Assembly: GCA_964645765.1 (NCBI GenBank) | Contig: CAZYBE010000011.1 | Span: 7,897-71,896, forward strand | DNA length: 64,000 bases | Direction of reading: 5' to 3' | Origin: an uncultured Eubacteriales bacterium | GTDB lineage: Bacteria > Acidobacteriota > Aminicenantia > Aminicenantales > Aminicenantaceae | In this document: positions 18,744-43,877 of the stretch, in pieces | Position numbering within the stretch: the stretch's first letter is position 1 | Layout: each line of letters opens with the position of its first letter | Notes under the pieces: generated by a model | What the model was told of the DNA's origin: nothing | Databases searched by the model: none | The model's input: the letters and a program-made list of their open reading frames with translations, nothing else | Translations under genes and position numbers: made by a program

Positions 18744-18765
18744 TGTTGAGATTCAAATGCGTTTT
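18744..18765. promoter_or_regulatory. Candidate module-1 box upstream of propeller 1
   Basis: tgttgagattcaaatgcgtttt versus tgttgtgatttgatttcgtttt at 21910-21931. Confidence 0.4.
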
Positions 18766-18776
18766 GATTGCAATTA

Positions 18777-19457
18777 TTATCCTTGAAATTTGTACCCAAC
18801 TCCCCTGATGCTGATGAGATGTCTTGGCTCTTCAGGATTTTTCTCTATTTTTTTTCTTAAATGGACGATATGCGGGTCTATCGTTCTGGGCGAGACAATA
18901 GCCTCTTTCCACGCTTCATCGAGTATCGCATCTCTGCTAACCACTTCTCCTCTGTGTTCGATGAAAAACTTAAGGAGCTTAAATTCGAGGGCTGTTAGAT
19001 ATAACTTTTTTCCTGCTTTGAGAATTTCATGGCTCTTAAAATCTACAGATATGTCTCCAAATTTGTAAACGTCTCCGGTCTCCTCCTTCTGCTTAATCCT
19101 TCTTAAAATAGCTTTCACTCTGGCCACGAGTTCCCTTGAGCCGACAGGCTTGGTGACATAATCATCAGCGCCCAACTCCAATCCCATCACTTTATCCATC
19201 TCATCTGTCTTTGCTGCTGTGAGCATCAGAATCGGCACGTTTTTGCCCGCCTCCCTGAGCTTCTTGCATACCTCGAAACCATTTAACTCTGGAAGCAGGA
19301 TATCAAGGATGATCAACTGAAAGTCATGCTCCATTGCTTTCTTTAAACCTTCTTTCCCATCCATGGCAACAGAGACTTTATAGCCTTCGAATTCAAGGTC
19401 ATCTTTCAATCCCATGAGAATGGCCTTGTCATCTTCGATTATTAAAATCTTTTCCAT
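18777..19457 (-). CDS. Module 1 OmpR-family response regulator
   Basis: IIEDD, LIILDILLP, GADDYVTKP, winged-helix RTIDPHIVHLRKKIE, RGVGYKF. Confidence 0.95.
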   Translation of the reverse strand: MEKILIIEDDKAILMGLKDDLEFEGYKVSVAMDGKEGLKKAMEHDFQLIILDILLPELNGFEVCKKLREAGKNVPILMLTAAKTDEMDKVMGLELGADDYVTKPVGSRELVARVKAILRRIKQKEETGDVYKFGDISVDFKSHEILKAGKKLYLTALEFKLLKFFIEHRGEVVSRDAILDEAWKEAIVSPRTIDPHIVHLRKKIEKNPEEPRHLISIRGVGYKFQG

Positions 19458-19478
19458 GTTACTCCCTTTTATACCCCT

Positions 19479-21605
19479 TTATGGCTTTACAGGAATTCTA
19501 ATCGTGACTTTTGTCCCTTCCCCCACTCCACTCTCCAAAAGCACCTCACCTCGATGGGCTTGGACGATATGGCTGACTACAGTCAGGCCAATGCCGCTTC
19601 CTTTGATATTGCTATTGTGCACACTTTGAGTCCTGTAAAATTTTTCAAAAACCTTTTCTTGCTCGTCCTTGCTGATGCCTATTCCCTCGTCCTTTACCTC
19701 AAAAAAAATGTTTTTTTCATCAGACCGGGCACGAAGAAAGACATTTCTACTCTCGCCCGAGTATTTTACAGCATTATCAAGCAGATTAAAGAGAGCCCGG
19801 GAAAGCGCTTCTCTGTCTGCATTAACTCTAAGCATCTGTTTTGATATCTCGCTATTAATGACGAATCCCTGTGAAGCCACCTGTTCCTGGAAACGAGAAG
19901 CAACATCCCTTGCCAATTCAACGACATCTACCTCCTCAAACTTGTACTCTTTCATCCCGGCTTCGATCTTCGAGAAATCGAGAATATTTTCTATGAGCCT
20001 GCTCAAGCGCTCGCTTTCCGTGGTTATCGTCTCATAGTACTGTTGTTTTTTATCCTCCCCCTGGACCCGTCCTCTCTGAAGCATCTCCGATAAATAGCGG
20101 ATCGAAGTTAAAGGCGTCCTGAATTCATGCGAAACAGTGGAGACAAAATCTGATTTTAGCCTTGCTAACTCCAGTTCTTTGGCTGTGCTCTTGATGGCCA
20201 GAAATCCTCCAAAGAACAACGCGACTATTACGACCATGACAGAAAGAATATAGATATTCCTCCGCAGGTTAAATTGCCTTTTTGCAGACCCCCGCTCGGT
20301 TTGGTAGATACTTACTTTCCAAGGAGGGAAATCATCCTCAAAGCTCCTTGAAAAAGTTAATCGTGGGAGCGGGCTTTTCAGACGAGTCAAGTCTTCACCT
20401 GCTATCTTTTTACCCTGCTCATTTTCTACCAAGATGTGCCAATCTTTTTTCAGCGGGAGCTTGGCTAAAATCGGAGGAAGTAGCTTTTCTGATAGGATGC
20501 CTGAGGCTATTTTCATGCCGAAGACTGAGCTCTCATTGACAGGAATACAGGAGATAAGATAATTCTCCTCTCCGATTGGCTCAGAAAGATGGGAGAAGCT
20601 TCCAGGACTTGGAGAAAGAGGCTTTCTCGTCTCAATAATTGGGATGAATTTCGCCATGATATTTTCTATGGTATTCATTCTTTTTAACTGCTCTTCCTCA
20701 ACCTTCTTTAAGCTTTGCCACTTTTCCTGGATAACTTTGCCCTCCTTTGTTCCGTTGATATTGATATCTGTTATGGATTTTTCAATCATGTCTTTAATTT
20801 TATTCAAATAGAAATAAAACTGGCCTCGACTCAAAGGCCATCTGGATTCCAAAAGGCTGTTGTAAAATTCAAGAAATGATTCGACCGCTTTTATCTTCCT
20901 ATCCATCTTCCAATTAATGTTTCCTATTTGATATTGAGCTATTAGCCCGATTGGAACCCCATCTGAACTAAACCCATCCGGCCATTCTTTCAAAATCTTC
21001 TGATATGATTCGGCGGCCTTTATATAATTTCCAGACTTCTCGTAACACCGTCCAATACAATTCAACAATATGGCACGGGAGACACTATCAGAAGCAATAT
21101 TTGTCAACGTTTGATAAGATTTTATTGCCTGAGGATAATCTCTTGTCTTGAATTCCAATGCCTCTGCTTCTTTGAAAAGTGGATTGGCCTCGACCTTGGT
21201 GCCATACTCTTTTAATTCCTGGATTTCCCCTGATAGCAGGAAAAGCGGCTTGCGGATTGGAAAGACGACATTTCCTTTCTCTTTGACCAAGAAAATCTCA
21301 TCGACTATTTCCTCTTCATCCGCTATTTTTTTGCATAGTTCTTCAAAATCACCCTCTTGACTGATGATGCGAGAGCCTTGGACTTTCCGGATTATTCTAT
21401 CCTCAGCCTCAAAGATAACTGCTCTAACCTGGTCAATAACAAGCCCTGCGGACCTCTGCTGTTCATCTTCTATCTCTTTCTCCCTGATTAGCTTTTCTCT
21501 CTCCGCTTCCCGGATAGCGAATATGGTCAGTATAAGGCTGAAGATAAATATTATCGCAGCGAAGAGTATTGTCGCTCTTCTCTGCCAGTTCAGTTTTATC
21601 TTCAT
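19479..21605 (-). CDS. Module 1 sensor histidine kinase with an extracytoplasmic TPR-like domain
   Basis: Two TMs; LLNCIGRCYEKSGNYIKAAESYQKI; H-box VSHEFRTP; NLLDNAVKY, DEGIGI, GSGIGL. Confidence 0.95.
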   Translation of the reverse strand: MKIKLNWQRRATILFAAIIFIFSLILTIFAIREAEREKLIREKEIEDEQQRSAGLVIDQVRAVIFEAEDRIIRKVQGSRIISQEGDFEELCKKIADEEEIVDEIFLVKEKGNVVFPIRKPLFLLSGEIQELKEYGTKVEANPLFKEAEALEFKTRDYPQAIKSYQTLTNIASDSVSRAILLNCIGRCYEKSGNYIKAAESYQKILKEWPDGFSSDGVPIGLIAQYQIGNINWKMDRKIKAVESFLEFYNSLLESRWPLSRGQFYFYLNKIKDMIEKSITDININGTKEGKVIQEKWQSLKKVEEEQLKRMNTIENIMAKFIPIIETRKPLSPSPGSFSHLSEPIGEENYLISCIPVNESSVFGMKIASGILSEKLLPPILAKLPLKKDWHILVENEQGKKIAGEDLTRLKSPLPRLTFSRSFEDDFPPWKVSIYQTERGSAKRQFNLRRNIYILSVMVVIVALFFGGFLAIKSTAKELELARLKSDFVSTVSHEFRTPLTSIRYLSEMLQRGRVQGEDKKQQYYETITTESERLSRLIENILDFSKIEAGMKEYKFEEVDVVELARDVASRFQEQVASQGFVINSEISKQMLRVNADREALSRALFNLLDNAVKYSGESRNVFLRARSDEKNIFFEVKDEGIGISKDEQEKVFEKFYRTQSVHNSNIKGSGIGLTVVSHIVQAHRGEVLLESGVGEGTKVTIRIPVKP

Positions 21606-21909
21606 TTGGAAATAATCCTCAGCTCATTATTCAATATGATTTGTTTTCTTTGACAATTTGGACATTTGAACCCCGTTTCCGCTTCAAGAGCTTAATACAG
21701 GAAAAACCAATAGTCAATTCTATAACTCAATATCTCTTTCAACCAACTTAAGCTGAATTTCCTCTATGATGATGTGATGCAAGGACTTTTTTCTATTCTC
21801 TTCTCCTTTATTTAGGTCTTGTGGACCAAACTTGCACCGTCAAGTAAAACTCACACTCAAAGCATAGAGCATTTTTCAATAAGAAAGTGTTAAGGCCCTG
21901 TTTAGATTC

Positions 21910-21931
21910 TGTTGTGATTTGATTTCGTTTT
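21910..21931. promoter_or_regulatory. Candidate module-1 box upstream of kinase 1
   Basis: Similar to 18744-18765; lies at the edge of the duplicated tail. Confidence 0.35.
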
Positions 21932-22040
21932 TTTCAGAAGACTTAACAGAGCCCCTCTGTGCTCACTTAATTTATCCCGCTTAATCTTAATTTATTTTTT
22001 CTTGCCTTTCTCTTTGGGCAGGAAGTTCTCCATGACCCAG
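21932..22040 (-). repeat. Propeller-2 3' end and downstream tail, duplicated from propeller 1 (about 16506-16615); contains a dead copy of the sORF start
   Basis: ttttcagaagact...gctcactt.attta..cgcttaatcttaatttatttttt shared; ATG replaced by ACA. Confidence 0.75.
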
Positions 22041-24091
22041 ACCTCGGACTTTTCATTCTGCGTCCTCGCAGTAAAGGCAATACGTCGACCGTCTGGGTGA
22101 GCACGCAAATGCATCAACCTTGACATCGCTAAATCAAGCTTCTCAGGCTCGCCGCCTTTCACTGGCACGCGCCACAAATCGACCATGTCCTCACTTCCCT
22201 CACGTGTTTTTCCGTAGAGTATGTACTGCCCATCCCTCGCCCACGCAATCGTGCTGATGTCTTTGACTTGTATCAACTCCAGAGGCTCGCCGCCTGCGGT
22301 TGGAAGAAGCTTCACCACATTTCCCGCAGTAAAGGCTATTTGTCTACCATCCGGTGAAAGTACTATAAGATGACGGTCTGGGCTTTGGGAAAAGCGAAGA
22401 AGCTCCTTCTCAATGCCGGTTTCAACTTCGTAGCGTATGATCCGACGGGATTCCTTGCCTGACCGCATAAAGTAAACTATTTTTCCGTCAGGAGCCCCTT
22501 CAGGCGAAAATATGGCTTCGCCCTTATCCGAATCCGACTGGGCGATGACCTCAGCATCGCCTGTCTGAGCGTTGATAGCGAACAAAAACCACCATTTTCC
22601 CTTCTCGTTCGGTCCGATGGCGAGAATCGAGCGGCCATCAGGAGACCAGCGGATGTAGTGAAAGTTCAGGCCTCCAACATGCTTGGGAACCAATTCACGG
22701 ATTTCATCTGTTCGAAAGGAGCGAATGAGCAAAACAACTCCTCCTCCTGCCACTTCCCCTCGTGACGAACGGCAGACCAGTTCCTGACCGTCGGGTGACC
22801 AACTGGGAGCGGAATTGAAGCCTTCATACTTCTGAACTGCCTTGATGGGAGAGGCCAGCACCTTGCCGGTCTCCGGGTCGATCGAGGCAACGTAGATGTC
22901 ACTCCACCCAGAATAGATACCATAATACAAGGAGCCCTCTCGAGTGATGCCGAGTGGACGGAGATTTCCCATATCTGCCCTTACAAGCTCAGCATCTCCT
23001 TTGGGTTTCCCATCAGCAACATGAATGGCCCAAATGCCTATGCTTCCAGTGCGGTCACTCTTGAAAACCAACCCTTTCCCGTCAGGTGTCCAGCCGAGGA
23101 CCAGATCATCAGCCGGATGCTCAACGAGCGGTATTTGCCGGCTTCCGTCGGCGGCGAGGAGGAAAATATCGCGGTTTCTCAAGTCTTGCTGTTGAGGAAA
23201 GCTGTAAGCAATATATTTTCCATCAGGTGAAAGGCTCATCCTCAATCGGTCACCCGAACATGGCGCCAGTGATTTTACATCCTTGACAGATCCATCTTCC
23301 GTGGATACAAACGCAATCTTTAGGGCTTGGCCCTGCATACTAAAAAAGGTCAGAATTTGCTTCCCGTCCCCAGACCAAGAGGCCGGCCATGGCCACTCTT
23401 CCTTGCTGGCGTAGAGGACTCGGGGTGCGGAGCCATCCATTCCTATGATTCGCAGTTCACCGAATCCTTCCTTATTCTGCCAGGTGTATGCGACTTGGCG
23501 ACCGTCGGGAGAGAATATGGACTGGTAGGCCATCTCTCCGGCATTATAGGAAGCATCTTTGGTGATTAGGCGGTTTTCCCCTTTTTCAAGGTCGCGGACT
23601 CCAAGATTGCCATTCTCCCACCAGTTCACATAGGTGAGGTATCTGCCGTCTGGGGAAGGTGCTCCCATAAAATAGGAATCGATGGCGTCAGCCCAGACCT
23701 GGCGGATTCGGAATTCCTTTTCGCCTTTTTCGATTATTGCCTGCGCTCTCGACAAAACATCCAGCTTTTCACGCGCCACTCTTACTGCTTCGGCTTGCTC
23801 TGGATAATTGTCGACTACCTTCTGAAAGGCTTGCTGGGCTTCTTCAAGACCTAACTTTTCATAGCAAAAGCCGATATACAGTTGAGATTTGGCTGCGTAT
23901 TCTCTTTCTCCAGGATATTTCTGGATTAGCTCACTGAAGAGCTTGATGGCTTCATTCAGGTCGCCCTTTGTTTCCATGGCGAATTTCGCTTTCTCGAAAA
24001 GCACTTTGTGCTCTGGAGAATTTTGAAGGCCAAAAGCCATCAGCGCAGCTGCTAAAACTGCGGTTGTGATAATAATTTTTTTTAAGTTCAT
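21992..24091 (-). CDS. Module 2: secreted TPR + TolB/PD40 beta-propeller protein
   Basis: Signal peptide; AAKSQLYIGFCYEKLG; PD40 repeats; VWVMENFLPKEKGKKK. Confidence 0.9.
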   Translation of the reverse strand: MNLKKIIITTAVLAAALMAFGLQNSPEHKVLFEKAKFAMETKGDLNEAIKLFSELIQKYPGEREYAAKSQLYIGFCYEKLGLEEAQQAFQKVVDNYPEQAEAVRVAREKLDVLSRAQAIIEKGEKEFRIRQVWADAIDSYFMGAPSPDGRYLTYVNWWENGNLGVRDLEKGENRLITKDASYNAGEMAYQSIFSPDGRQVAYTWQNKEGFGELRIIGMDGSAPRVLYASKEEWPWPASWSGDGKQILTFFSMQGQALKIAFVSTEDGSVKDVKSLAPCSGDRLRMSLSPDGKYIAYSFPQQQDLRNRDIFLLAADGSRQIPLVEHPADDLVLGWTPDGKGLVFKSDRTGSIGIWAIHVADGKPKGDAELVRADMGNLRPLGITREGSLYYGIYSGWSDIYVASIDPETGKVLASPIKAVQKYEGFNSAPSWSPDGQELVCRSSRGEVAGGGVVLLIRSFRTDEIRELVPKHVGGLNFHYIRWSPDGRSILAIGPNEKGKWWFLFAINAQTGDAEVIAQSDSDKGEAIFSPEGAPDGKIVYFMRSGKESRRIIRYEVETGIEKELLRFSQSPDRHLIVLSPDGRQIAFTAGNVVKLLPTAGGEPLELIQVKDISTIAWARDGQYILYGKTREGSEDMVDLWRVPVKGGEPEKLDLAMSRLMHLRAHPDGRRIAFTARTQNEKSEVWVMENFLPKEKGKKK

Positions 24092-24155: not shown

Positions 24156-24191
24156 TGTCAAACAAAAGTAAAAGAATGTAAAAGATTGTTA
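24156..24191. promoter_or_regulatory. Module-2 box upstream of propeller 2
   Basis: Four GT(A/C/T)A half-sites at 24157, 24168, 24178, 24188 (spacing 11/10/10). Confidence 0.6.
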
Positions 24192-24878
24192 TCAGCCCAT
24201 GAACCGGTATCCTGCTCCATAGACGGAAAAAATATGTTTGGGATGAGCTGGGTCTTCCTCGACCTTTTTCCTCAATTTCAGGATATGATTATCGATGGTT
24301 CGGGTTGTGGGAAACCTCTCATAGCCCCAGATTTTATCGAGCAAAGCCTCTCTGGTGACAACTTCGCCTCTATGCGCAATGAAGTACTTAAGAATCTCCA
24401 CTTCAAGCGATGTCAGGTCAACTTCCTTGCCCTTGCGCCTGACTTTGAAATGAGAAAAATCAACTTCAACATCGCCAAAAGAATAAACGTCAGGGATTCT
24501 TTTCGCTTCCCTTTTCTCGCGCCGAAGGTGAGCCTTGACCCGTGCTAAAAGCTCGCGAATGCTGAAAGGTTTGGTTATATAATCATCGGCGCCGACCTCC
24601 AACCCTACCACCTTGTCAACCTCTCCCCCTTTGGCGGTGAGCATTATGATTGGGATATCCATGTTTTTCTGGCGAAGCTCCCGGCAGACTTCAAGGCCAT
24701 CCATCTTGGGGAGCATGATGTCAAGGATGATTAAATCCGGCCGTTCTTCCAAAGCTTTGCGAAGCCCTTCCTGGCCATCATAAGCCCAGGTCACCTCATA
24801 TCCTTCGCCAGCCAGATTGAGTTTCAACCCTTTAACCAGGTCCTCTTCATCTTCGATAATCAATATCTTCTCTTTCAT
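24192..24878 (-). CDS. Module 2 OmpR-family response regulator
   Basis: LIILDIMLPKMDG, GADDYITKPF, RTIDNHILKLRKK. Confidence 0.95.
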   Translation of the reverse strand: MKEKILIIEDEEDLVKGLKLNLAGEGYEVTWAYDGQEGLRKALEERPDLIILDIMLPKMDGLEVCRELRQKNMDIPIIMLTAKGGEVDKVVGLEVGADDYITKPFSIRELLARVKAHLRREKREAKRIPDVYSFGDVEVDFSHFKVRRKGKEVDLTSLEVEILKYFIAHRGEVVTREALLDKIWGYERFPTTRTIDNHILKLRKKVEEDPAHPKHIFSVYGAGYRFMG

Positions 24879-24880: not shown

Positions 24881-27010
24881 TTATTCCTTAATAGGGCCAG
24901 TAAGAGGAAGAATCACTGAAAAGATACTTCCTTCTCCTGGCTGGCTCTCGACTTTAACTCTGCCGCCGTGGGCCTCTGTAATGTGCTTGACCAGCGTCAG
25001 TCCTAAGCCGCTTCCTCCTGTTTCTGCAGAGACTTTATTTTTCACCCGGTAAAATCTTTTAAAAATCTTTGATGTTTCTCTGGGCGAGATTCCTATTCCC
25101 TTATCTTCGACTTGAAGAATAGCATGATTTCTCTCTTTGAATAATCTTACTGCCACTTCCTTCCTTTCTAGAGAAAATTTCATGGCATTGCTTAAGAGGT
25201 TGATTAAAACACTGGCCATGGCTTCCCGGTCAAAATCCATCTGGGGAAGGTCGGCGGCAATTTCTGCTTGAATCTTAAATCCTTTCTTCTCCAAGTGATA
25301 GCGATAGGAATCTAAAGTATCCCGAACCACATCGGACAAATTCCCTTTTTTAAGATTGAATTCTTTTCTTCCCATCTCAATCCTGGAGAAATCAAGGACA
25401 TTATTGATGAGGTGCGACAGCCGCTCGCTCTCTTTGGTGATGATTTCATAAGCCTCTCGCTTTTCTTCCTCTTTCAAGTCGTCTTTTCGTTGGAGTGTTT
25501 CGCCATAGAGCCGAACGAGCGTCAGAGGCGTTTTTAACTCGTGGGAGACATTATGGACGAATTCGGTTCTTAGCCGGGTTGTCTCTGATTCCCGGGCAAT
25601 ATCCCGTATGATCAAAACGACACCCAAAAGCATTAAGACCACAATGACACTGAGAAGCATTCCATAGAGAATGTTCTCTCGGACCGCTGTTCTCTCCAAC
25701 TCATTGAAGGCAGGCTGAGAAGTCAGGAGTTTCCAGGGGAAAGGAAACTGGCGAAAGGATAAAGATAGAGAATCCTTTGAAGCCAATTCCTTTTTCCCGC
25801 TTAAGACATTTTGACCGCTTTCATCGATGATTTGGATTTGAAGTCTGGAATCTTCTCTTATCTCCGCAAGTATTTTCGGCAATATCTCTTTTTTAAAATA
25901 ATCAAGATCCCAGCAATGGCCACCATAAAGAGTTTTTTCTGGTTGAAAATCAGGAAGGAGGCGATAAGAGATAAGACAAAAATTTGCTTCTTGGCGAACG
26001 GCAAAGAAACGTTCTGGCTGGCTCTCTTCCCCTCTCCTGGAGAGAGCATGTTTTTCTTTTATTCGGGGAACAACCTCCCTCTTCAAAAAGTCTGTAAAAA
26101 GCAATGCTTGAAGATAAGGAGCTTCCCTCTCTCTCAAGGCACGGTAGGCTTTTTGAATTTCCGGAAACTTCTCATTCAGTTTTTTTTTAAGAATTGATTC
26201 GATATCGGCAATGAAAAAATCATAGCTGGGAGAGCCAAGAAGCCAATCTCCATTCCTTATCTTCTGATAAAGGTCGAGCAAAATTTTAAGGCTTTGCTCT
26301 TCTTTCCCTCGACGCTGTTCTATCTCAAATAACTGAAATGTAGCCCCTATTCCATAAGGATGGCCTGCTTTATTCTTTAATTGTGCATGCTTAGCAGATA
26401 GCTCGCTATAAACTTTGTAAGCTTCCTCATTTTCTTTTAAAGAAAAGAGACAGCGGCCCAGGCCTTCGAGGGCCGTTGCCCGATCTTGCTCTATAGAGGC
26501 TGACACTGAGCATTGTTTATAAAGCTCAGCGGCCCGGCGGTAGTTCTTTTGGGTGAATTCAAAAGATTCTGCTCTCTGAAGGTCTTGGGAAAATTTACTG
26601 GTCAATAGACTTTTTTCCTCTTGGAAAACCGAAACATCCTCGGCTCCAGTGCGAGGAAAAATGATTTGATAATCCGCATCGAGGAGAAAAGCCTGGCCTG
26701 TGACTTGCTTGGAGTCTAAAGGAAAATTATAAGGGCCTTGACTCGCGCTTTCTTGCTGGATCAAGGAAATAAAATTTTCCGCCTTTAAGGCCTGCTTTTC
26801 ATACTCAAGAAGTTTAGCCTCAAGAGATTTCAGTGCAGCCTCGCCTGAAATCCAGAGATTTGACTCAAGAATTTTCTGGACTGCCTCACGCCTTTTGGCA
26901 AAAGTGCTCAAACTTAAATAGCCAACGATAAGCGAAGGCAACAAAATGGCCAGCAGGAAAATGAGGATGATTTTTTTTCGGGCAAATATCCCCTGAATAA
27001 ATATTTTCAT
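24881..27010 (-). CDS. Module 2 sensor histidine kinase with a TPR-like sensor domain
   Basis: Two TMs; ALEGLGRCLFSLKENEEAYKVY; VSHELKTP; NLLSNAMKF; GSGLGL. Confidence 0.95.
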   Translation of the reverse strand: MKIFIQGIFARKKIILIFLLAILLPSLIVGYLSLSTFAKRREAVQKILESNLWISGEAALKSLEAKLLEYEKQALKAENFISLIQQESASQGPYNFPLDSKQVTGQAFLLDADYQIIFPRTGAEDVSVFQEEKSLLTSKFSQDLQRAESFEFTQKNYRRAAELYKQCSVSASIEQDRATALEGLGRCLFSLKENEEAYKVYSELSAKHAQLKNKAGHPYGIGATFQLFEIEQRRGKEEQSLKILLDLYQKIRNGDWLLGSPSYDFFIADIESILKKKLNEKFPEIQKAYRALREREAPYLQALLFTDFLKREVVPRIKEKHALSRRGEESQPERFFAVRQEANFCLISYRLLPDFQPEKTLYGGHCWDLDYFKKEILPKILAEIREDSRLQIQIIDESGQNVLSGKKELASKDSLSLSFRQFPFPWKLLTSQPAFNELERTAVRENILYGMLLSVIVVLMLLGVVLIIRDIARESETTRLRTEFVHNVSHELKTPLTLVRLYGETLQRKDDLKEEEKREAYEIITKESERLSHLINNVLDFSRIEMGRKEFNLKKGNLSDVVRDTLDSYRYHLEKKGFKIQAEIAADLPQMDFDREAMASVLINLLSNAMKFSLERKEVAVRLFKERNHAILQVEDKGIGISPRETSKIFKRFYRVKNKVSAETGGSGLGLTLVKHITEAHGGRVKVESQPGEGSIFSVILPLTGPIKE

Positions 27011-32924: not shown

Positions 32925-32926
32925 CT

Positions 32927-35698: not shown

Positions 35699-36387
35699 TT
35701 ATCGAGGATAAGCTTGTAGCCGACGCCATGAATTGTGATCAAGTATTGCGGGTTGGCTGGGTCATCTTCAAGCTTGTTTCGAAGCAAAGCGATGTGATTG
35801 TCCACAGTCCGAGTTGTCGGATATTGGTCATAGCCCCACACTTCATCGAGAAGCTCTTCGCGTGTGACCACTTCGCCCGCGCGTGCAGCCAAGAGGCGAA
35901 GCACACCAAATTCCTTGCGCGACATGTTTATTGCCTTGCCGGCTTTCTGCGCCTCGAACTTCCTGAAATCGACGAACACCTTGCCGAAATGCAGCTCTTC
36001 CGGAAGATTCCCGGCCTTGGATTTCTGCATGCGTCTTAAAATGGCACGGATTCTTGCCATCAACTCAGGAACTGAAAAAGGCTTTGTGACATAATCATCA
36101 GCTCCAAGGTCAAGCCCGAGCACACGGTCCACTTCCTCACCCCTGGCAGTCAACATTAAGATCGGCGTGACGATGCCCTCATCACGCATCTTACGGCAAA
36201 GCTCATAGCCGCTCATTTTAGGCAGCATCAAATCCAGAATAATCAAGTCGGGCTTTTTCTCTCGAATTAAACAGTAGCCCTGCTCCCCGTCTGTAGCGGT
36301 TAAAACCTCATACTTTTCATACTCCAGGTTATCCTTGAGTCCGCGGAGTATCGCCTGATCATCCTCGATGATGAGGATCCGTTTCAT
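35695..36387 (-). CDS. Module 4 OmpR-family response regulator
   Basis: LIILDLMLP, GADDYVTKPF, RTVDNHIALLRNK. Confidence 0.95.
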   Translation of the reverse strand: MKRILIIEDDQAILRGLKDNLEYEKYEVLTATDGEQGYCLIREKKPDLIILDLMLPKMSGYELCRKMRDEGIVTPILMLTARGEEVDRVLGLDLGADDYVTKPFSVPELMARIRAILRRMQKSKAGNLPEELHFGKVFVDFRKFEAQKAGKAINMSRKEFGVLRLLAARAGEVVTREELLDEVWGYDQYPTTRTVDNHIALLRNKLEDDPANPQYLITIHGVGYKLILDK

Positions 36388-38351
36388 AACTCCTTCTCCA
36401 GGGGAAGGTAAATGGAAAATGTGCTCCCTTTTCCAGGTGTACTTTCCACCTCGATATATCCTCTGTGAGCTTTAACAATATGGGAAACAAGGGCAAGACC
36501 AAGGCCAGTTCCGGGAAGGCGCTTGTTCTCCTCAGAAGGGATTCGGTAGAACTTTTCAAAAATCCGCTCTTTTTCCCGCGGATCAATTCCCACACCCCGG
36601 TCAACAACCTGAATCAGGGCATGGCCGTCCTTTCTTTGAAGCCGCAACTCGATTTCCCGGGACTCACCCGAGTACTTCATGGCATTGTGGAGGAGGTTCA
36701 AAATTGCCTGTTCGATCGCATCTCGATCCACTCGAACTTCGGGCAAGCCTTCATCTGCCTGGACATGAAGCTTGAAGCCCTGTTTACTCAGGGGATATTC
36801 CATGGCTCGCGCAGCTCCCTGGATAATTTCGGAGAGAGAAGCTGTTTCAGGCCTGTAAATCCTTTTCCCTTGCTCGATCTTGGAGAAGTCGAGCACGTTG
36901 TTTAAAAGCCGTGTCAGGCGCTCGCTCTCGTTAACAATCGTGTCCAGGTATTCTCTCTGCGTCTTGGGATCCTTTGAGCGGCCCAAACGCAGCGTTTCAG
37001 CGAACATCCGGATGGCTGTAAGCGGTGTCTTTAGCTCATGGGAGACACTGGAAACAAATTGGGAGCGCATCTCAGCCATCTGGACTTCGCGGCGCACGTC
37101 TCTCCAGAGGAGATAGGCTCCGAACAGAGTCACGCTCAAGACTAAAAGCAGAGCGAGCAAATAAAAAGCAGGTTGAACGCTCCATTGCTTAGATAGCACT
37201 GACAATTCGCCGGCCTCGAAAGCGATTTTCAAACCCCGGAAATTCGGACCTAGGAATTTTCCTTCGGAAGCTTCATCTCGGATAAAGCGGATTTCTCCAG
37301 GGTAAGTTTTTAGAAAGCCGCTGTCTGATTTGAGTGAAGCGAGGATATCCCCAGCTTCAACAACAATGACCAAAGGATTTGTTCCAGCCGGAGGCGAAGC
37401 CAGACTGATTAGCCACGGACCTTCACCATAAGGGACCCAGATGGATTCATTTTTCTGACTTTCCTGATTCGTAAACAAGGGCAAGGTTTGGAAATCTCTT
37501 TGGAGCGCCAAAGATTGTTCCATCTTTCGGATATAATCCAGAATCTGCTGATTATATTTATGTGCAGCATCTTTAACGGACGGTTCGGGGGTGTTGATTA
37601 ATTTTTCTGCTAAATCTTTAAGCAGATAGGCTTCAGCAGGAGAAAGCCACCGCTTCGCTTCAATTTCTGCGCTGATAGCTTCTGCGATTTCCTCAAAGCC
37701 CGTACCAGCTTCAAGAAGCGGCCCTGCGGCATATAAGCAGAAGGGAATTCCATACTCATCTTTTATTCTCGAAGGGAGCTTTAAAATACTATGGAAATGC
37801 TCTAAAGCTTCTTTTTTTCTATCCGTCTTCGAGAGAGCTCGCGCCAACAAAAGATGAGCGTAGCTTTTTCGAATGGGTTCTCGAGTTGCATTAATCAGCT
37901 GGCGATAGAGCTCAGCCGCACGGGTAAAATTTTTCTTTGCAAATTCCTGTTGCTCGGCATGCTGAATCTGTATTGCAAAATTAGAATCACTCAAAATTTG
38001 TCTGAATTCCGCGCTCTGTTGATTTGATTCCCACGGCAAACGCAACTTTGCTTCTTTCACCTGACCGATAAGCGCGACCTCAGGATTTATATATTCTAGG
38101 TTGCCCGGGAGTTCAGTCCAATTTATCGACACACCTGCTTCCTGTAATTTGATCTTTTCCAGGCGCATGAGTAAGACTTGGCCAAATTCTCTCGCCGCAC
38201 GCTGTCGCTCATCCTCCATTCGCTTCTGAGCAAGCTCCTGTTCTTGCCTTATCATACGCCAAGCAAAAATTACCAGGAGTAAGCTTGGCAAAACGACAGC
38301 GATTAAAAACAGAAAAAATTGCTTGCGATGGCTGTGCGAATTTATCGGCAT
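36384..38351 (-). CDS. Module 4 sensor histidine kinase with a TPR-like sensor domain
   Basis: Two TMs; AHLLLARALSKTDRKKEALEHF; VSHELKTP; NLLHNAMKY; GTGLGL. Confidence 0.95.
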   Translation of the reverse strand: MPINSHSHRKQFFLFLIAVVLPSLLLVIFAWRMIRQEQELAQKRMEDERQRAAREFGQVLLMRLEKIKLQEAGVSINWTELPGNLEYINPEVALIGQVKEAKLRLPWESNQQSAEFRQILSDSNFAIQIQHAEQQEFAKKNFTRAAELYRQLINATREPIRKSYAHLLLARALSKTDRKKEALEHFHSILKLPSRIKDEYGIPFCLYAAGPLLEAGTGFEEIAEAISAEIEAKRWLSPAEAYLLKDLAEKLINTPEPSVKDAAHKYNQQILDYIRKMEQSLALQRDFQTLPLFTNQESQKNESIWVPYGEGPWLISLASPPAGTNPLVIVVEAGDILASLKSDSGFLKTYPGEIRFIRDEASEGKFLGPNFRGLKIAFEAGELSVLSKQWSVQPAFYLLALLLVLSVTLFGAYLLWRDVRREVQMAEMRSQFVSSVSHELKTPLTAIRMFAETLRLGRSKDPKTQREYLDTIVNESERLTRLLNNVLDFSKIEQGKRIYRPETASLSEIIQGAARAMEYPLSKQGFKLHVQADEGLPEVRVDRDAIEQAILNLLHNAMKYSGESREIELRLQRKDGHALIQVVDRGVGIDPREKERIFEKFYRIPSEENKRLPGTGLGLALVSHIVKAHRGYIEVESTPGKGSTFSIYLPLEKEL

Positions 38352-38400: not shown

Positions 38401-38418
38401 TTGTCATGAAAATGTCAT
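38401..38418. promoter_or_regulatory. Module-4 box upstream of kinase 4
   Basis: 18-bp perfect match to 35681-35698. Confidence 0.75.
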
Positions 38419-38667
38419 GAGGCAAGCACTTGTCTACCTATTACCCTTTTTTCTTATCCATTAGTTTATAACATAGGAAATAACTGTGGTCAAACAATCT
38501 GGCTTTCTGTGAATGTTCTACTAGTCCAGTAAGATTCTTAATACGAGGGCAGATGCTTTAAGAGAGAATAATCTTGAGCCTCAGTGAGTGGCTTGATTGG
38601 TCAACGCAAAAAGTTACTTGATATCTTCGATAAGCTTCTCATAATTTTCGATGTTCTGATCTAGATT

Positions 38668-40848
38668 TTACTTTTTTTGCCTATTTTCTTCAGGCAGGAA
38701 ATTCTCCATCACCCAAATATCTACACTCAGAGTGGAGCAACAAAAGGCCATACTCTGTCCATCGGGATGAAGACTTAGATATTTCAATTGTTTCATCTCC
38801 AAGCCAAGCTCCTGTGGTTTTTCTTCGTCCAAAGAAATCTGCCATAGGCTGCATTTGTTAATGTTATCCTTGTATTTGGCGAAAACCAATCCTTTTCCAT
38901 CGGTTGTCCATGCGAATGTTGAAAAAGTTTCTTTTTTCCCAAGCGTCAAAATTTTTCTGAGTTCTCCACCAGAAGAAGGCATGACATAAAGGGTATCCAA
39001 TATGGTCTCCAAGTTCTGTCTCGTAAATGCCAGCCAATCTCCATCTGGTGAGAGAGACATGTGAAAACATCCAGACTTAAGTTCCTGTTCTCGGCCAGAT
39101 TCAATATCATAAACCTTGAGAATGGAGGGGTATTTTTCAAGGGGTTCATCATATTTTTGCACCGTATAATAGAGCTTCTTTTTATCAGGCGACCAGCTGG
39201 CCCAGAAGATTCTGATAAAATCAGGGCCGAATGTTTTCAGCTTCTTCGAATCTCCAGTTTGCACATCAATTTCAAAAATCCCAAGTTGCCCTGAAGGATC
39301 TTCTCCTGCCGCTAGGATAGATTCTCCATCTGGAGACCATTTGATAGGTTGAACAGACTTCAAGTCGAGCCTGAATTCTTTTTGTTCGTCGGTACCTTCC
39401 GACTGGATACAGAGAAACCAGACATAATCGCTTCCGAATAGCCTGGAAGACATATAGGCCAGAGACTTCCCATCCGGAGACCAATCGGGAAAGAGATTTG
39501 AACCCTCATACTTTTGCATCGCTTTTTCTGGTGAGGTCTTGAGTTTGGCTTTTTGTTTATCGTAAGTGGCCGTGTAAATATCACTCGTCCAATTTTCCTT
39601 ACTGTAATAAAAAGATCCACTTTTATCAAGACCCAGGGGATTTATCTCTCCCAATTCCTTGTGAACCAGCAGAGGATTTCCCTGGAGCTGTCCTTCTTCA
39701 ATTCCTACAATCCAAGAATCTAAGGATCCTCTCCTATTGCTGGCAAAAAAGAGCTTTTTTCCATTAGGCGATAAGTCAAGGATAAAATCATCAGCTGGAT
39801 GCTCCACCAGCTTTATGTCCTTCCCGTCTTCCAAAGAGTATAGAAAGATGTCACGTTCTGGGGAATCTTTCTTCTGGGGCAAATCATAGACTATGTACTT
39901 CCCATCAGGTGAAAGCAAGGCGTTATCTAGAGGATTAAGAGGCGTTTCAAGCTGCTTCAGCATCCGGATCGAACCATCTGCAACTTTGACCAATGCCAAC
40001 TGACCTGTCATATCGCTTTTTAAGAAGGCAGTAAGGATATGATTTCCATCCGATGCCCAGTCCAGAGGAACTACAAAAGGAAATTCCTCACTGTGCAGGA
40101 GAACGCGGGGCTTCGGTTTTGTCAGAGGAATAATGCAGATATCACATCCGCCGCCGCTGGGTAAGCCTAAACTCGACCAGCCATAGGCAATCTTTTGGCC
40201 ATCGGGAGCCCATATGGAACTCGTAGCATACTTCATTTTCTTAATCAATGACATCCTTTCTTTTGCTGAAATCTTTTCCACATCACCGAATATGAAAAAA
40301 TTATCCGTCAACCGCCTTCTCTTTTTTGTGTTCAGATCGAGAACAGCAAGGTCGCCTCCATGCCTATCTGTAAAAGCTATGTATCGGCCGTCTGGGGAAA
40401 CAGAGCTCAGATTGTTCATCCGCACATCGAGGTTTTCCCAGAGCTTCCTCATTCTGAATTGTCTGTTGCCTTTATCCGACACGGCTTGGGCTTTAATAAA
40501 AATGGCAAGTTTTTCTTTGGCCACCTTGACAGCTTCAGCCTGCTCAGGATAATTTTCGACGACTTTTTTAAAAGCTTTTTCGGCTTCTTTAAAACCTAAT
40601 TTTTCATAGCAGAGGCCGATGTGAAGTTGAGCTTTAGCCGCAACCTCACGATTATCTGGATACTGTTTCAATATTTTCTGATAAAGCTCGATGGCCTTCT
40701 GCAAATCTCCCTGAGCTTCTTCCATGTAAAGTGCTTTTTCGAAGAGCTCTCCTGCAGTCTGCTGGTATGATAAGCTATTGAATACGAAGAGAAGAAGGCA
40801 AAAGGCTGAAACAAAAAGACTGAAAACGATTTTCCTAACATTTTTCAT
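38668..40848 (-). CDS. Module 5: secreted TPR + TolB/PD40 beta-propeller protein
   Basis: SD ggagg before ATG 40848; AAKAQLHIGLCYEKLG; PD40 repeats; IWVMENFLP. Confidence 0.9.
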   Translation of the reverse strand: MKNVRKIVFSLFVSAFCLLLFVFNSLSYQQTAGELFEKALYMEEAQGDLQKAIELYQKILKQYPDNREVAAKAQLHIGLCYEKLGFKEAEKAFKKVVENYPEQAEAVKVAKEKLAIFIKAQAVSDKGNRQFRMRKLWENLDVRMNNLSSVSPDGRYIAFTDRHGGDLAVLDLNTKKRRRLTDNFFIFGDVEKISAKERMSLIKKMKYATSSIWAPDGQKIAYGWSSLGLPSGGGCDICIIPLTKPKPRVLLHSEEFPFVVPLDWASDGNHILTAFLKSDMTGQLALVKVADGSIRMLKQLETPLNPLDNALLSPDGKYIVYDLPQKKDSPERDIFLYSLEDGKDIKLVEHPADDFILDLSPNGKKLFFASNRRGSLDSWIVGIEEGQLQGNPLLVHKELGEINPLGLDKSGSFYYSKENWTSDIYTATYDKQKAKLKTSPEKAMQKYEGSNLFPDWSPDGKSLAYMSSRLFGSDYVWFLCIQSEGTDEQKEFRLDLKSVQPIKWSPDGESILAAGEDPSGQLGIFEIDVQTGDSKKLKTFGPDFIRIFWASWSPDKKKLYYTVQKYDEPLEKYPSILKVYDIESGREQELKSGCFHMSLSPDGDWLAFTRQNLETILDTLYVMPSSGGELRKILTLGKKETFSTFAWTTDGKGLVFAKYKDNINKCSLWQISLDEEKPQELGLEMKQLKYLSLHPDGQSMAFCCSTLSVDIWVMENFLPEENRQKK

Positions 40849-40956
40849 TGTATCCCTCCATTTCATAGTTTCAGCCTTAATATAATGTTTTCTTCAATGG
40901 GATGTGTTCAGGAAGTATGAAAATATAATGAAATTTCATCGCAAATGGCCCCAAAG

Positions 40957-41643
40957 CTAATCAACGAATTTGTATCCCACTCCTCTGATGCTGAGGATAT
41001 GTTTTGGATTGGTGGGGTCATCTTCTATTTTCTTTCTGATATTGGCGATGTGGCTGTCAATGGTCCGAAAAGAAACGGAAACATTGTCTTCGCCCCAGAC
41101 TTTATCCAGAAAATCATCTCTTGTTACCACCTCGCCTTTTTTCTGGATAAAAAGTTTTAGCATCAGAAATTCTAAAGACGTTAACTCAAGCTTCTTTCCT
41201 TTCTTTCTGGCCTCGTATTTCTTGAAGTCCAGTTCTACCTGGCCAAATTTATATTCTGCTAAATCTTTTGCTCTTTCTTCTGTTCTGCGCAGAACCGCCC
41301 TGGCACGGGCCATAAGCTCTCGCAGGCTGAAAGGCTTGGTCACATAATCATCAGCACCCAACTCCAAGCCCAAGACTCTATCGATCTCTTTGTCTTTCAC
41401 GGTAAGCATGATGATCGGCGTTGAATCCCCTTCCATTCTCAATTTCTTGCAGACTTCGTAACCGTCCAGGAGAGGAAGCATGATATCCAGGATGACGAGG
41501 TCCGGTTTCTGCTGCTTGACCATCTTGAAACCCTTCTCGCCATCCTCTGCCGTGAAAACTGAATAACCTTCGGATTCAAATTCATCCTTAAGGCTCAACA
41601 AGATTCCGGGCTCGTCTTCAATGATTAGAACTTTTTTCGCCAT
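40957..41643 (-). CDS. Module 5 OmpR-family response regulator
   Basis: LVILDIMLP, GADDYVTKPF, RTIDSHIANIRKK. Confidence 0.95.
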   Translation of the reverse strand: MAKKVLIIEDEPGILLSLKDEFESEGYSVFTAEDGEKGFKMVKQQKPDLVILDIMLPLLDGYEVCKKLRMEGDSTPIIMLTVKDKEIDRVLGLELGADDYVTKPFSLRELMARARAVLRRTEERAKDLAEYKFGQVELDFKKYEARKKGKKLELTSLEFLMLKLFIQKKGEVVTRDDFLDKVWGEDNVSVSFRTIDSHIANIRKKIEDDPTNPKHILSIRGVGYKFVD

Positions 41644-41650
41644 GTAAACC

Positions 41651-43792
41651 TCATAACTCTTTTCTCTTTATCGGAAAAACTAAAGAAAAAGTGCTTCCCT
41701 GACCGATTTTGCTCTTGACAGATATCTTCCCTCCATGGGCTTCGACAGTATGCTTGACCAGAGTCAACCCCAAACCTGCGCCTTTCGCTGATTGCCTGAG
41801 CGCATTTCGTCCTTGATAAAATTTGTCGAATATTTTGTTGAGTTCATCCTGAGGGATGCCTATTCCTCTATCCATGACTTCCAAGATGACATTATCTTCA
41901 TCTTTTTTGAGATTGACATAAATATCTTTTATATCAGTGGAAAATTTTAGGGCGTTATCCAGAAGATTATTGAAAGCCTGCGACAGAGCATCTTGATCAA
42001 CATAGAGATGGGGAATACCCTCAGAAACTACGGCATGAATCTTTATCCCCTTTTGAATCTCATCTTTTCTGAAATTCTCTATCTGCTGGAGCACAAGCTG
42101 AGCGACATCGGTCTCGACAAACTCATATTCCTTCTTCCCTTCTTCTATCTTGGAAAAATCAAGAATGTTTTTTACAAGTCTGGTCAACTTGTCTGCATCC
42201 TGAGAGATGAGTGAAAAATACTGTTCCATTTTTACTTCATCTTTAACCTTTCCCTCTTTTAGCCTTTCAATCAGAGCCTTTATCGAGGTTAAGGGAGTCT
42301 TGAATTCGTGGGAGACAGCAGAGACAAAGTCGGATTTTATCTTTAAAACCTCCATCTCATGAGCAATGGTCCGGACTATGATAGCCGCACCAAAAATAAG
42401 GATGACGACCAGGGTGAGGATGGTCCAGAAGTAAAAGCTCTGCCTGATATCAACGATCGACGAACTCTCCGGCTGGCTGCGAAAAATTTCTATCCTCCAG
42501 GGCGGAAAATTGTCTTCGAAGAATTCAGTAACAGCGGATACTCCTGCAGATGAATCTTTCCTGCCAAAAAGAACTCTTCCAGAAAGATCGGAAATAGCTA
42601 GCCTCATATTTTCACTGGATGGAATCTCTTCGATTATTGTTTTCAGCGTTTGATCTTCTAAAGATTCATTTTTTATCTTGACTCCAATTATTCCCATTGA
42701 ATTCGTTCCTGTCTTATCCGGAATCATGGCTGCAGAAATAAGAAAACTTCTTTCATCTATTGATTTGGAATGGTGCAACGGCTGCAGCCTGTCTATCCCT
42801 GGCTCAAGGAGTTTTTTACGCAATTCGGGAATAACGTCTTTTTCCAACGCTGTTATGACTTGCCACTGCTCGATCTTTTTCTGTTGCATTTTCTTTAACA
42901 GCTCAAATTCTCTCAAATATTCATCCGATACAGTATCAGCTAATTTTTTTGACATAGCATCAGCAATGATTTCTTCCAATATGGAGGAATAAGTCCGGAA
43001 TTGGTCTTCTTTCAAGCTCCAGGAATCTTGAAGAAGGTCCCTGTATAAGGCTAAAGAGCTTCTCAGACGATTCTCATCATCACCTGAATTCTTATAGCAA
43101 TCCAAAATCTGCAATCTGGCTACGAGGCTTAAGGGCAAGCCTGACGGGGTTATGCTTTCAGGATATTCTTCACATATTCTTAAATAAATTTTAATCGCCT
43201 CTTTGGAATTTTTTAATTTCGTAAAACAACGGCCGATACTATTGAGCACCTGAGCCTGGCAATTTTTGTCTTTGGAATTGGAGAAAATTTCTTCGTAGAG
43301 AGAAATGGCTTTTCTGTAATTTCCTTGCCTGAATTCATATTCTTCTGCCTCTTTCAATTTCCGGGTTTGAGAATCGCTAAAAGACGCCGCAGATACAGGA
43401 ATTGCAGTCTTTGTAGTGTCCTGAAACAAAGGGAAAAGAGGAGCTTCATTTTTATAAACAAGAAAAATCTGTTCTACCAATGGGTTCGAAGCCAATCTCG
43501 TCTCTAAAAGTCCCCTTATGGCTGAATAATTCCTGTCAGAAAAGGATGGAAATTGAGACAGATTCTGAAGAGCTAAATCAATATCCTTCAATCGGGTATG
43601 AATTTGAGTCTTTAAATAATCAGCAGCTCTCCTCAGTTCTGCTTCTTCCTGCCTGGCGAGTCTGAATTTTTCATTCCTTATGGCCCTGATGCCAAAGATG
43701 CTGAGTGAAACAGAGGGAAGGAAAATTGTTAGGAAGAAGATTAATACAAGTTTCTTTTGCCTTTTAAGAGCTATCTTAAGATTCTCGAGCAT
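41651..43792 (-). CDS. Module 5 sensor histidine kinase with a TPR-like sensor domain
   Basis: Two TMs; QVLNSIGRCFTKLKNSKEAIKIY; VSHEFKTP; NLLDNALKF; GAGLGL. Confidence 0.95.
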   Translation of the reverse strand: MLENLKIALKRQKKLVLIFFLTIFLPSVSLSIFGIRAIRNEKFRLARQEEAELRRAADYLKTQIHTRLKDIDLALQNLSQFPSFSDRNYSAIRGLLETRLASNPLVEQIFLVYKNEAPLFPLFQDTTKTAIPVSAASFSDSQTRKLKEAEEYEFRQGNYRKAISLYEEIFSNSKDKNCQAQVLNSIGRCFTKLKNSKEAIKIYLRICEEYPESITPSGLPLSLVARLQILDCYKNSGDDENRLRSSLALYRDLLQDSWSLKEDQFRTYSSILEEIIADAMSKKLADTVSDEYLREFELLKKMQQKKIEQWQVITALEKDVIPELRKKLLEPGIDRLQPLHHSKSIDERSFLISAAMIPDKTGTNSMGIIGVKIKNESLEDQTLKTIIEEIPSSENMRLAISDLSGRVLFGRKDSSAGVSAVTEFFEDNFPPWRIEIFRSQPESSSIVDIRQSFYFWTILTLVVILIFGAAIIVRTIAHEMEVLKIKSDFVSAVSHEFKTPLTSIKALIERLKEGKVKDEVKMEQYFSLISQDADKLTRLVKNILDFSKIEEGKKEYEFVETDVAQLVLQQIENFRKDEIQKGIKIHAVVSEGIPHLYVDQDALSQAFNNLLDNALKFSTDIKDIYVNLKKDEDNVILEVMDRGIGIPQDELNKIFDKFYQGRNALRQSAKGAGLGLTLVKHTVEAHGGKISVKSKIGQGSTFSLVFPIKRKEL

Positions 43793-43848
43793 TTATAAGG
43801 AACGCCCCGATATTTTATTAGTTAGTTTATCATATTGGCTTGGCTTAA

Positions 43849-43877
43849 AAGTTAAGCAAGTGTGAAGATTCTGTCAA
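43849..43877 (-). promoter_or_regulatory. sigma70-type promoter for kinase 5
   Basis: Minus-strand TTGACA (43872-43877), 17-nt spacer, TAACTT (43849-43854); overlapped by a gtgaag/gtcaag 11-bp repeat. Confidence 0.55.

Follow-up and report, generated by a model that had tools for sequence, protein, structure and literature searches.

Tandem two-component modules of an uncultured Aminicenantales bacterium carry module-specific direct-repeat boxes, predicted operators of their own OmpR/PhoB-type regulators

Introduction

When a bacterium carries several tandem copies of one two-component signalling cassette, does each response regulator have DNA sites of its own, and can these sites be read from the genome? 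Paralogous two-component systems keep separate specificities after duplication, as Laub-type studies of kinase-regulator specificity residues describe, and a 2018 paper by Joyce and Havranek reportedly deals with a winged-helix code. For uncultured phyla, regulator binding sites are almost never known. We addressed the question in a 64,000-nt stretch of DNA (the window) from an uncultured bacterium of the Aminicenantales, where 16.5-43.8 kb hold five tandem modules of three genes each, all on the minus strand: a histidine kinase, then an OmpR/PhoB-type response regulator, then a secreted protein with TPR repeats and a double propeller. A literature search found no description of this cassette. 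All coordinates below are positions in the window; K denotes the region upstream of a kinase gene and P the gap between a regulator gene and its propeller gene.

Here we document the boxes found in the K and P regions, their phasing, position and conservation, and their co-variation with the recognition helix of the regulator encoded beside them. A preliminary description of this stretch had proposed module-specific direct-repeat boxes, each shared by the kinase promoter and the propeller promoter of its module. This proposal is upheld by 70 modules outside the window, by a scan with matrices that leave the window out, and by a metagenome search that led from box to helix. From these sequence patterns, each box is very probably the operator of its own module's regulator.

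Results and Discussion

Phased direct-repeat boxes lie at the predicted -35 position of both promoters

Each box is built of two to eight tandem direct-repeat units, a 5-6-bp core plus a spacer, with a period of 10-11 bp and with every unit oriented along transcription (Table 1). The intergenic regions that contain them are AT-rich (29-37% GC). When orthologous regions were aligned on the box, conservation rose again at a TAnnnT hexamer, often preceded by TG, and at 10/10 window promoters the proximal core lies 19-22 nt upstream of such a -10-like hexamer, which would place the box at the -35 position.

The sequences quoted in the preliminary description were all found where it had placed them. 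In module 2, four half-sites with 11/10/10 spacing on the plus strand begin at 24157 and 27078; in module 3, where the units are spaced 11/11/11, two 37-mers at 29482 and 32601 are identical at 30/37 positions; and in module 4 the 18-mer TTGTCATGAAAATGTCAT is identical at 35681 and 38401. The P4 region holds far more than this 18-mer. Its 7/7 (G/T)ACA cores keep a single 11-bp phase over 84 bp, an arrangement matched by 0/20000 shuffles, and they occupy an array of eight contiguous slots that starts on the stop codon of regulator 4 and keeps its single phase in orthologues. The 18-mer was rejected as the promoter-proximal site of P4, being the distal end of the eight-slot array, of which the proximal pair is GAGACATCATCATGACAC.

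To compare the regions within the window, we computed a 5x5 K-by-P local-alignment matrix with dinucleotide shuffles as background. Own-module pairs scored 17, 20, 23, 18 and 11 (modules 1-5) against 9-14 off the diagonal, and K aligned with reverse-complemented P in the same matrix gave no signal. The observed score was reached by 1/1000 shuffles for module 1, 0/1000 for each of modules 2-4 and 227/1000 for module 5. Modules 1-4 are clearly non-random inside the window, and the module 5 pair is not significant by this window-internal alignment. The similarity exceeds that of both cross-module pairs and shuffles for modules 1-4, but not for module 5 within the window. The best register of K1 is one 11-bp unit off the earlier alignment.

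The leaders of the propeller genes have a feature of their own, a hairpin a few nucleotides past the proposed -10 whose 3' arm abuts or overlaps the Shine-Dalgarno sequence GGAGG (minus strand; 24099-24128 for P2, 29421-29452 for P3 and 18678-18703 for P1). Compensatory changes occur in 5/6 pairs of the module-2-class hairpin among eight orthologues, and the 7-bp stem CCTCATG/CATGAGG of the module-3-class hairpin is invariant. This hairpin could act as a 5'-terminal stabiliser or as a translational gate.

The boxes recur in related modules and are recovered without the window

We searched one genome per species with the propeller alignment and obtained 76 loci. Most are from metagenome-assembled genomes of Candidatus Aminicenantes, several of them automatically labelled "Eubacteriales"; the others include some Acidobacteriota/Terriglobia and a few bins labelled Ignavibacteria or Bacteroidota. 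Hidden Markov models (HMMs) built from the window proteins then located 70 non-redundant complete kinase-regulator-propeller modules in 48 loci of other genomes, often in tandem arrays, with one locus carrying regulators of helix types NAL-KSL-NLK (defined below) in the same order as window modules 4-3-2, a case of partial synteny. More than 300 modules were seen in the genome collection. Across the 70 modules the mean own K-P similarity was 14.2, compared with 10.2 (standard deviation 2.2) for other pairs, and the module's own P ranked among the top three in 36/70 cases, the competitors being orthologous modules. The same helix class was never found twice in one assembly (0 redundant against 4.4 expected, p ~0.004). 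In the orthologue sets, pairwise identity was 0.57-0.86 inside the boxes, compared with 0.27-0.74 over the preceding 20 nt, where it was mostly 0.27-0.29 and rose only if extra repeat units lie there. Spacer bases and the order of units are conserved in a class-specific way.

Next, 24-nt matrices were derived by expectation maximization with all window members left out, and were used to scan the entire window on both strands (128 kb). The module 2 matrix gave K2 36.5 and P2 35.6 bits (next best 12.7), the module 4 matrix K4 33.7 and P4 24.9 bits (next best 10.7, a second P4 site), and the module 3 matrix K3 25.5 and P3 12.9 bits (next best 6.7). For module 5 the matrix was built on six modules of its helix class outside the window and gave P5 32.4 and K5 29.6 bits (next best 23.3, at 48688-48711, outside the array). 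The module 1 matrix put P1 on top with 31.8 bits and K1 at only 7.3, with a next best of 13.9. For modules 2-5, the two best window matches of these orthologue-based matrices were thus the cognate K and P sites, and for module 1 P1 only was found; every non-cognate cell of the 5x10 matrix stayed at or below 7.3 bits. Module 5, rightly called weak in the preliminary description, is rescued by its orthologue matrix; the looser match described for module 1 survives the pair alignment (score 17, 1/1000 shuffles), yet K1 fails to stand out with the orthologue matrix. In about 1 Mb of related loci, which partly overlap the training set, 116/126 matches of at least 20 bits precede the kinase or propeller gene of a module, and most of the remaining 10 are at locus ends.

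The third-best window site for the module-5-class matrix (23.3 bits) belongs to a phased TTCAT-TTCAC-TTCAT-TTAAC series (11/11/11) at 48667-48706 on the plus strand. It stands directly upstream of an open reading frame (ORF) for a PHP/CehA-like metallohydrolase (48728-49756), which is followed by a calcineurin-like phosphoesterase (49803-50546), and by its sequence it may be an extra target of regulator 5. Its -10 spacing is atypical, with TACAGT just 10 nt past the last core, and no conserved equivalent of at least 20 bits was seen in orthologous loci.

Helix class and box class change in step

Modules were grouped by the three variable residues of helix alpha-3 in RT[VI]D-x-HI-yz-LR. The helices given in the preliminary description for modules 1-5 (DPHIVH, DNHILK, DKHISL, DNHIAL and DSHIAN) are correct and represent five of these classes. 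Within a class, K and P regions share a single box type from one genome to the next. For the classes of the window these are TTTTACAnnnnTTTGACA (NLK, module 2), CATGACATTTTCrTGACA (NAL, module 4), TTCACnnAATCTTCAy (KSL, module 3), cTTGACAGAATCTTCAyACTTCCTTAAC (SAN, module 5) and AATCTCAACnnAAnCTTAACC (PVH, module 1). Five further classes have no module in the window: SVH with TCCACnnAAACTCAA, SAH with TTTCCAyATTTCCTyAACA, KAE with TCTCACAATCTTCACAC, NAQ with TTTACAnnnnCATGACAA and TLN with CTTGACAnAnTCTkGACAnnTnCTkGAT.

One residue tracks the core. Counting only modules with a clear shared box, (G/T)ACA-type cores accompany N or T at position x, the residue after the conserved Asp, in 26/26 modules, and TCAC/TCAA/TAAC-type cores accompany K, S, P or A in 23/24; at the level of classes the split is 9/0 against 1/7. 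The two core types (G-type and C-type) were defined post hoc, so Fisher tests on these counts are descriptive only. In the window, modules 2 and 4 have the cores TT(T/G)ACA and (A/G)TGACA, and modules 1 (CTCAAC/TTAAC), 3 (TTCAC) and 5 (TTCAC/TTCAT/TTAAC) have related ones. As for the helix-to-box code claimed earlier, what stands is that one residue follows one core position; the other positions give no simple map, and the classes are phylogenetically non-independent.

The reverse test began from DNA and was independent of the protein-based sampling. Metagenome contigs searched with the bare module-4 17-mer box ATGACATTTTCRTGACA yielded at least 123 matches. Among the matches listed, 24 lie directly upstream of a module-type kinase and seven between a regulator and a propeller gene, all in the sense orientation, and 16/16 readable cognate regulators carry RTVD-N-H[IVM]-[AS]-x-[LI]R, with SAN, NLK or KSL helices in the neighbouring modules of those loci. 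The third variable residue (L, S, Q or G in these helices) is evidently not decisive for a module-4-type box. Approximately 70% of the listed matches are in loci without module genes (e.g., the non-coding repeat of L093); we took these as background and did not accept them as regulon members.

A finer division was seen inside the KSL class, where EPRTVDKH regulators (the window and L042) go with TTCACA(A/T)AA-type units (29481-29518 in the window) and DARTVDKH regulators (among L017/L022/L062/L018) with TTCA(C/T)GGAA units. This pairing suggests that the two residues preceding the conserved Arg may also affect the bases 3' of the core.

Probable cognate operators and the alternatives

We predict with good confidence that each box is the operator of its own module's OmpR/PhoB-type regulator. 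The phosphorylated regulator would bind head-to-tail along one face of the DNA and recruit RNA polymerase to two promoters per module: one driving the kinase-regulator operon, which would create positive autoregulation, and one in the gap past the regulator gene, driving the secreted TPR/double-propeller protein. This activation mechanism is drawn by analogy from PhoB, OmpR and mycobacterial PhoP. Because the base-contacting positions of helix alpha-3 and the boxes differ in step, each regulator should mainly see its own two promoters. On this reading, the most likely role of each regulator is to switch on both the kinase-regulator operon that encodes it and the propeller gene of its module; binding, direction and degree of insulation are what we infer from the sites.

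Several observations pull the other way. A generic sigma-70 consensus scan over 16000-50000 stayed at noise level (28 found against 24.5 expected), so the -10 assignments stand on conservation across orthologues alone; a terminator consensus scan of the same interval was likewise at shuffle level. K1 and K3 sit 250-290 nt upstream of the kinase start codons, which implies long leaders. K1 is weak, with 7.3 bits, and P3 reaches only 12.9 bits, the latter because its training orthologues come from a different sub-clade. Helix classes coincide with clades (receiver-domain identity 0.83 within and 0.58 between), so the co-variation of helix and box speaks for about 10-19 lineages and not for 70 independent points. 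Finally, activation over repression is read from box position alone.

Insulation and a readable code, both drawn from sequence, are borne out only in part. We regard it as somewhat unlikely, though the closest competitor, that the boxes are cognate and the loops leaky, with regulators of related core type (1, 3 and 5; 2 and 4) binding each other's boxes to form a network or cascade. The resemblance of the cores within these two groups fits such cross-binding, as do the 11-mer AATCTTCACAC common to K3 and K5 and the frequency of regulator-to-regulator cross-regulation in Pseudomonas aeruginosa (PMC8599809). Weighing against it are the 24-nt matrices, in which non-cognate sites reach at most 7.3 bits versus 25-36 bits at most cognate sites, the class-specific conservation of spacer bases and unit order, and the presence of at most one module per class in each genome. 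The insulation of the five loops proposed in the preliminary description thus has the absence of cross-match between full 24-nt matrices in its favour, and the related cores of modules 1, 3 and 5 and the shared 11-mer against it.

Repression through cognate boxes, with negative autoregulation and the propeller gene held off by occupancy of the -35, is improbable. The proximal unit does overlap the predicted -35 position, and in module 2 and the TLN class the unit itself is TTGACA, where a bound regulator could occlude sigma-70 region 4. Most classes, however, offer a poor -35 (TTAAC, TGAAC, TTCAT or ATGACA) at 19-22 nt from the -10 versus an optimal 17, as is typical of activator-dependent promoters, and the tandem units farther upstream (at -47, -58 and beyond, with as many as eight in P4) are like the arrays through which PhoB, OmpR and PhoP activate (PMC4415409, PMC11825685). 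The same TTGACA cores and the AT-richness of the intergenic regions would also suit boxes that are no regulator operators at all, such as generic AT-rich -35/UP elements, duplication remnants or the site of an unlinked factor. We consider this highly improbable: box sequence is class-specific and mostly unlike TTGACA, with two to eight repeats in helical phase; boxes are conserved while their flanks drift toward random identity; and equally AT-rich cross-module K-P pairs score at background. Moreover, no class-specific DNA-binding protein other than the regulator is encoded with each box type, and the helix of the regulator co-varies with the box.

Beyond cognate operators, we offer a bolder and rather doubtful proposal, namely that the family contains a dozen or more orthogonal regulator-operator pairs whose specificity would follow a very small helix alpha-3 rule. 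Under this rule, core position 3 would be chosen by the residue that follows the conserved Asp (equivalent to Val197 of PhoB), with N or T specifying G/T (xxGACA, xxTACA) and K, S or P specifying C/A (TTCAC, CTCAAC, TTAAC), and the flanking bases would be tuned by the variable pair that comes next (equivalent to Arg200/Arg201 of PhoB).

Relation to known systems

OmpR acts at ompF and ompC through phased direct-repeat sites (F1-F3, C1-C3) on one DNA face, upstream of a weak -35, and its cores are TTTACA/GTTACA-like, as are those of module 2. The present regulators differ from OmpR in profile score (189 bits, cut-off 331) and in their proposed targets, their own operon plus a propeller gene where OmpR has porin genes; P4, with its eight contiguous 11-bp slots, is unlike either ompF or ompC.

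There is a close likeness to the PhoR-PhoB/PHO-box system (E. coli; PhoP of Streptomyces coelicolor and Mycobacterium tuberculosis), which also uses 11-nt direct repeats made of a core and a less conserved spacer. PHO boxes are 11-nt direct-repeat units bound head-to-tail in variable number (PMC4415409), and mycobacterial PhoP, in its transcription-activation complex, binds cooperatively as tandem dimers of which the proximal one overlaps the -35 (PMC11825685). As predicted for the modules, there are "simple and complex operators", proximal units replace the -35 and the system's own operon is targeted (PMC4415409, PMC11825685). The PHO unit GTTCACC of S. coelicolor resembles the TTCAC cores of modules 3 and 5, and the module-4 box read on the opposite strand, antisense to the genes, is TGTCATGAAAATGTCAT, close to the PHO-type CTGTCATAAAACTGTCAT. 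The module-4 box alone resembles a PHO box; sense-strand CTGTCAT-type PHO boxes before phosphate-acquisition genes were not found, and no pst or pho genes were seen among the window ORFs examined. The regulator scores 217.6 bits with the PhoB model TIGR02154, below the equivalog cut-off of 296.2, and carries N, T, K, S or P at the equivalent of PhoB Val197. The kinase scores 219 with the PhoR model TIGR02966 (cut-off 334) and has an outer TPR domain of ~420 residues where PhoR has a PAS architecture.

Unlike in Laub-type studies, divergence is read here at the regulator-DNA interface and from genome sequence only; each paralogue supplies two cognate sites, which orthologues replicate. A further parallel is the set of regulator maps obtained by DNA affinity purification sequencing, where related regulators have related motifs and autoregulation is frequent (PMC8599809); most P. 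aeruginosa regulators show potential autoregulation (PMC8599809).

The mechanism is textbook; what is new, and gives the set its value, is an unusually clean natural series of many paralogues, in an uncultured lineage, in which operator and helix can be paired from sequence. The predicted operators of five paralogous OmpR-type regulators, and about a dozen family-wide, become readable in this way. They provide a ready test set for DNA choice by winged-helix regulators and for cross-talk avoidance in duplicated two-component systems, as well as candidate orthogonal regulator/promoter parts. They also allow the regulation of a large undescribed sensory cassette of Aminicenantes/Acidobacteriota-like bacteria to be annotated, with autoregulation and a secreted propeller protein as the dedicated output. 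If swapping the helix alpha-3 residues of the proposed rule swaps box preference, the largest family of bacterial response regulators would gain a portable recognition code, and there would be a direct view of how tandemly duplicated signalling modules are insulated at the level of DNA.

Proteins of the modules

Coordinates of the genes and sites are collected in Table 1. In the kinases (~710 residues), two transmembrane segments enclose the TPR-containing outer domain, and HisKA and HATPase_c come after them, an architecture read by Pfam on paralogues. The regulators (~228 residues) are encoded by genes that abut or overlap the kinase gene. In Pfam, regulators 1 and 4 match Response_reg (E = 5e-30 and 5e-32) and Trans_reg_C (E = 5e-23 and 9e-28); the phospho-acceptor D52 and the helix RT[VI]DxHI..LR are kept in 5/5 regulators, whose closest solved relatives are RegX3, RpaA, MtrA and PhoP. 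The propeller genes begin 90-141 bp past the regulator genes in the five modules. Their products, ~700 residues long, combine a signal peptide and an N-terminal TPR segment with propeller repeats of the PD40 (TolB-like) type.

Table 1. Genes, direct-repeat boxes and -10-like hexamers of the five modules
Feature	Coordinates	Strand	Details
Module 5 histidine kinase (TPR-containing extracytoplasmic sensor, HisKA, HATPase_c)	41651..43792	-	family HMM 1060 bits
Module 5 OmpR/PhoB-type response regulator	40957..41643	-	helix SFRTIDSHIANIR
Module 5 secreted TPR + PD40 double-propeller protein	38668..40866	-	
K5 box	43851..43878	-	CTTGACAGAATCTTCACACTTGCTTAAC; three units, 11/11
K5 -10 TAAACT with upstream TG	43824-43832 (hexamer 43824-43829)	-	21 nt downstream of box
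P5 box	40906..40933	-	TTTCATTATATTTTCATACTTCCTGAAC; three units, 11/11
P5 -10 TATATT	40879-40884	-	21 nt downstream of box
Module 4 histidine kinase	36384..38351	-	
Module 4 response regulator	35695..36387	-	helix TTRTVDNHIALLR; start overlaps kinase stop by 4 nt
Module 4 TPR + PD40 propeller protein	33403..35553	-	
K4 box	38401..38419	-	CATGACATTTTCATGACAA; two units, 11 bp
K4 -10 TAAGAT	38376-38381	-	20 nt downstream of box
P4 array	35615..35698	-	seven (G/T)ACA cores + one degenerate slot, 11-bp phase
P4 -10 TAAATT	35590-35595	-	20 nt past proximal pair
Module 3 histidine kinase	30207..32348	-	
Module 3 response regulator	29525..30205	-	helix EPRTVDKHISLLR
Module 3 TPR + PD40 propeller protein	27259..29412	-	
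K3 box	32600..32637	-	TTCACATAATCTTCACACAAAAGTTACAAAATCTTCAT; four 11-bp slots, third degenerate
K3 -10 TATGTT	32573-32578	-	21 nt downstream of box; kinase leader ~220 nt
P3 box	29481..29518	-	TTCACATAACTTTCACACAAAAGAGATGAAAGCTTCAA; four 11-bp slots as in K3
P3 -10-like TTATCC	29455-29460	-	20 nt downstream of box
Module 2 histidine kinase	24881..27010	-	
Module 2 response regulator	24192..24878	-	helix TTRTIDNHILKLR
Module 2 TPR + PD40 propeller protein	21992..24091	-	
K2 box	27077..27114	-	TTTTACATTTGATGACAATTTTTTACATTTTTTTGACA; four units, 10/10/11
K2 -10 TACAAT	27052-27057	-	19 nt downstream of box
P2 box	24156..24193	-	GATAACAATCTTTTACATTCTTTTACTTTTGTTTGACA; four units, 10/10/11
P2 -10 TACTTT	24130-24135	-	20 nt downstream of box
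Module 1 histidine kinase	19479..21605	-	
Module 1 response regulator	18777..19457	-	helix SPRTIDPHIVHLR
Module 1 TPR + PD40 propeller protein	16568..18670	-	
K1 box	21889..21924	-	AATCAAATCACAACAGAATCTAAACAGGGCCTTAAC; weakest site
K1 -10-like TATGCT	21861-21866	-	22 nt downstream of box; leader ~250 nt
P1 box	18734..18769	-	AATCAAAACGCATTTGAATCTCAACACAAGCTTAAC
P1 -10-like TAACAT	18707-18712	-	21 nt downstream of box

A structure model of propeller 1 (predicted local distance difference test score 78.8) shows the signal peptide, a short helical TPR-like domain and two beta-propellers; the matches of this model in a Foldseek search of PDB were confined to generic tandem propellers, TolB and DPP-IV N-domains, and gave no functional lead. 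The protein recalls TolB and CpoB (YbgF) of the Tol-Pal system in joining a CpoB-like TPR to TolB-like PD40 blades behind a signal peptide. It departs from TolB in its score (TIGR02800, 126.3 bits, cut-off 343), in having two propellers of which TolB matches one only (Foldseek), and in adjoining a two-component system in place of tol-pal genes. In NCBIfam, no equivalog was reached by the kinase, the regulator or the propeller protein.

A conserved (V/L)W(V/L)ME(N/G)FLP motif forms the C-terminal end of all five propeller proteins, which also have the N-terminal segment AKAQ..IG.CYEKLG....A..AFQKV...YP in common. The true start of propeller 5 is probably the second Met (MKNVRK), which has GGAGG just before it, and not the first ATG at 40866; its orthologues keep the same 'atgagatggagg' leader. 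In some related loci the propeller genes are paired or fused into double-length ORFs (e.g., L020, L036 and L073). A specific relationship between the sensor TPR of the kinase and the N-terminal TPR of the propeller protein, which would have hinted at interaction of the partners, was dropped as too weak: the sole match is a 37-residue TPR-like stretch (IGRCYEKSG...YQKIL..WP) with E = 0.001 in a single pairwise comparison.

Neighbouring features

Rfam and ARAGORN scans found nothing inside the array, so the boxes are not a known RNA element, and detected only a tRNA-Val outside it. The 3' ~42 nt of this tRNA-Val(cac) (43990-44031) recur at 46438-46479 and 48361-48402, repeats that we read as marking two tandem islets inserted at the tRNA (43958-48402). 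The first islet carries an AbiEii toxin/AbiEi antitoxin pair (44329-46108, minus strand) and the second an AAA_14/DUF4143 ATPase (46959-48197, plus strand); an integrase was seen in neither. With the islets removed, ~420 bp would separate the K5 box from the site at 48.7 kb, which would face away from it. Within the array, the gap between propeller 4 and kinase 3 (32349-33402, minus strand) is unusually long; upstream of the K3 box it accommodates two short ORFs placed back to back, which by eye look like an antitoxin and a RelE/ParE-type toxin.

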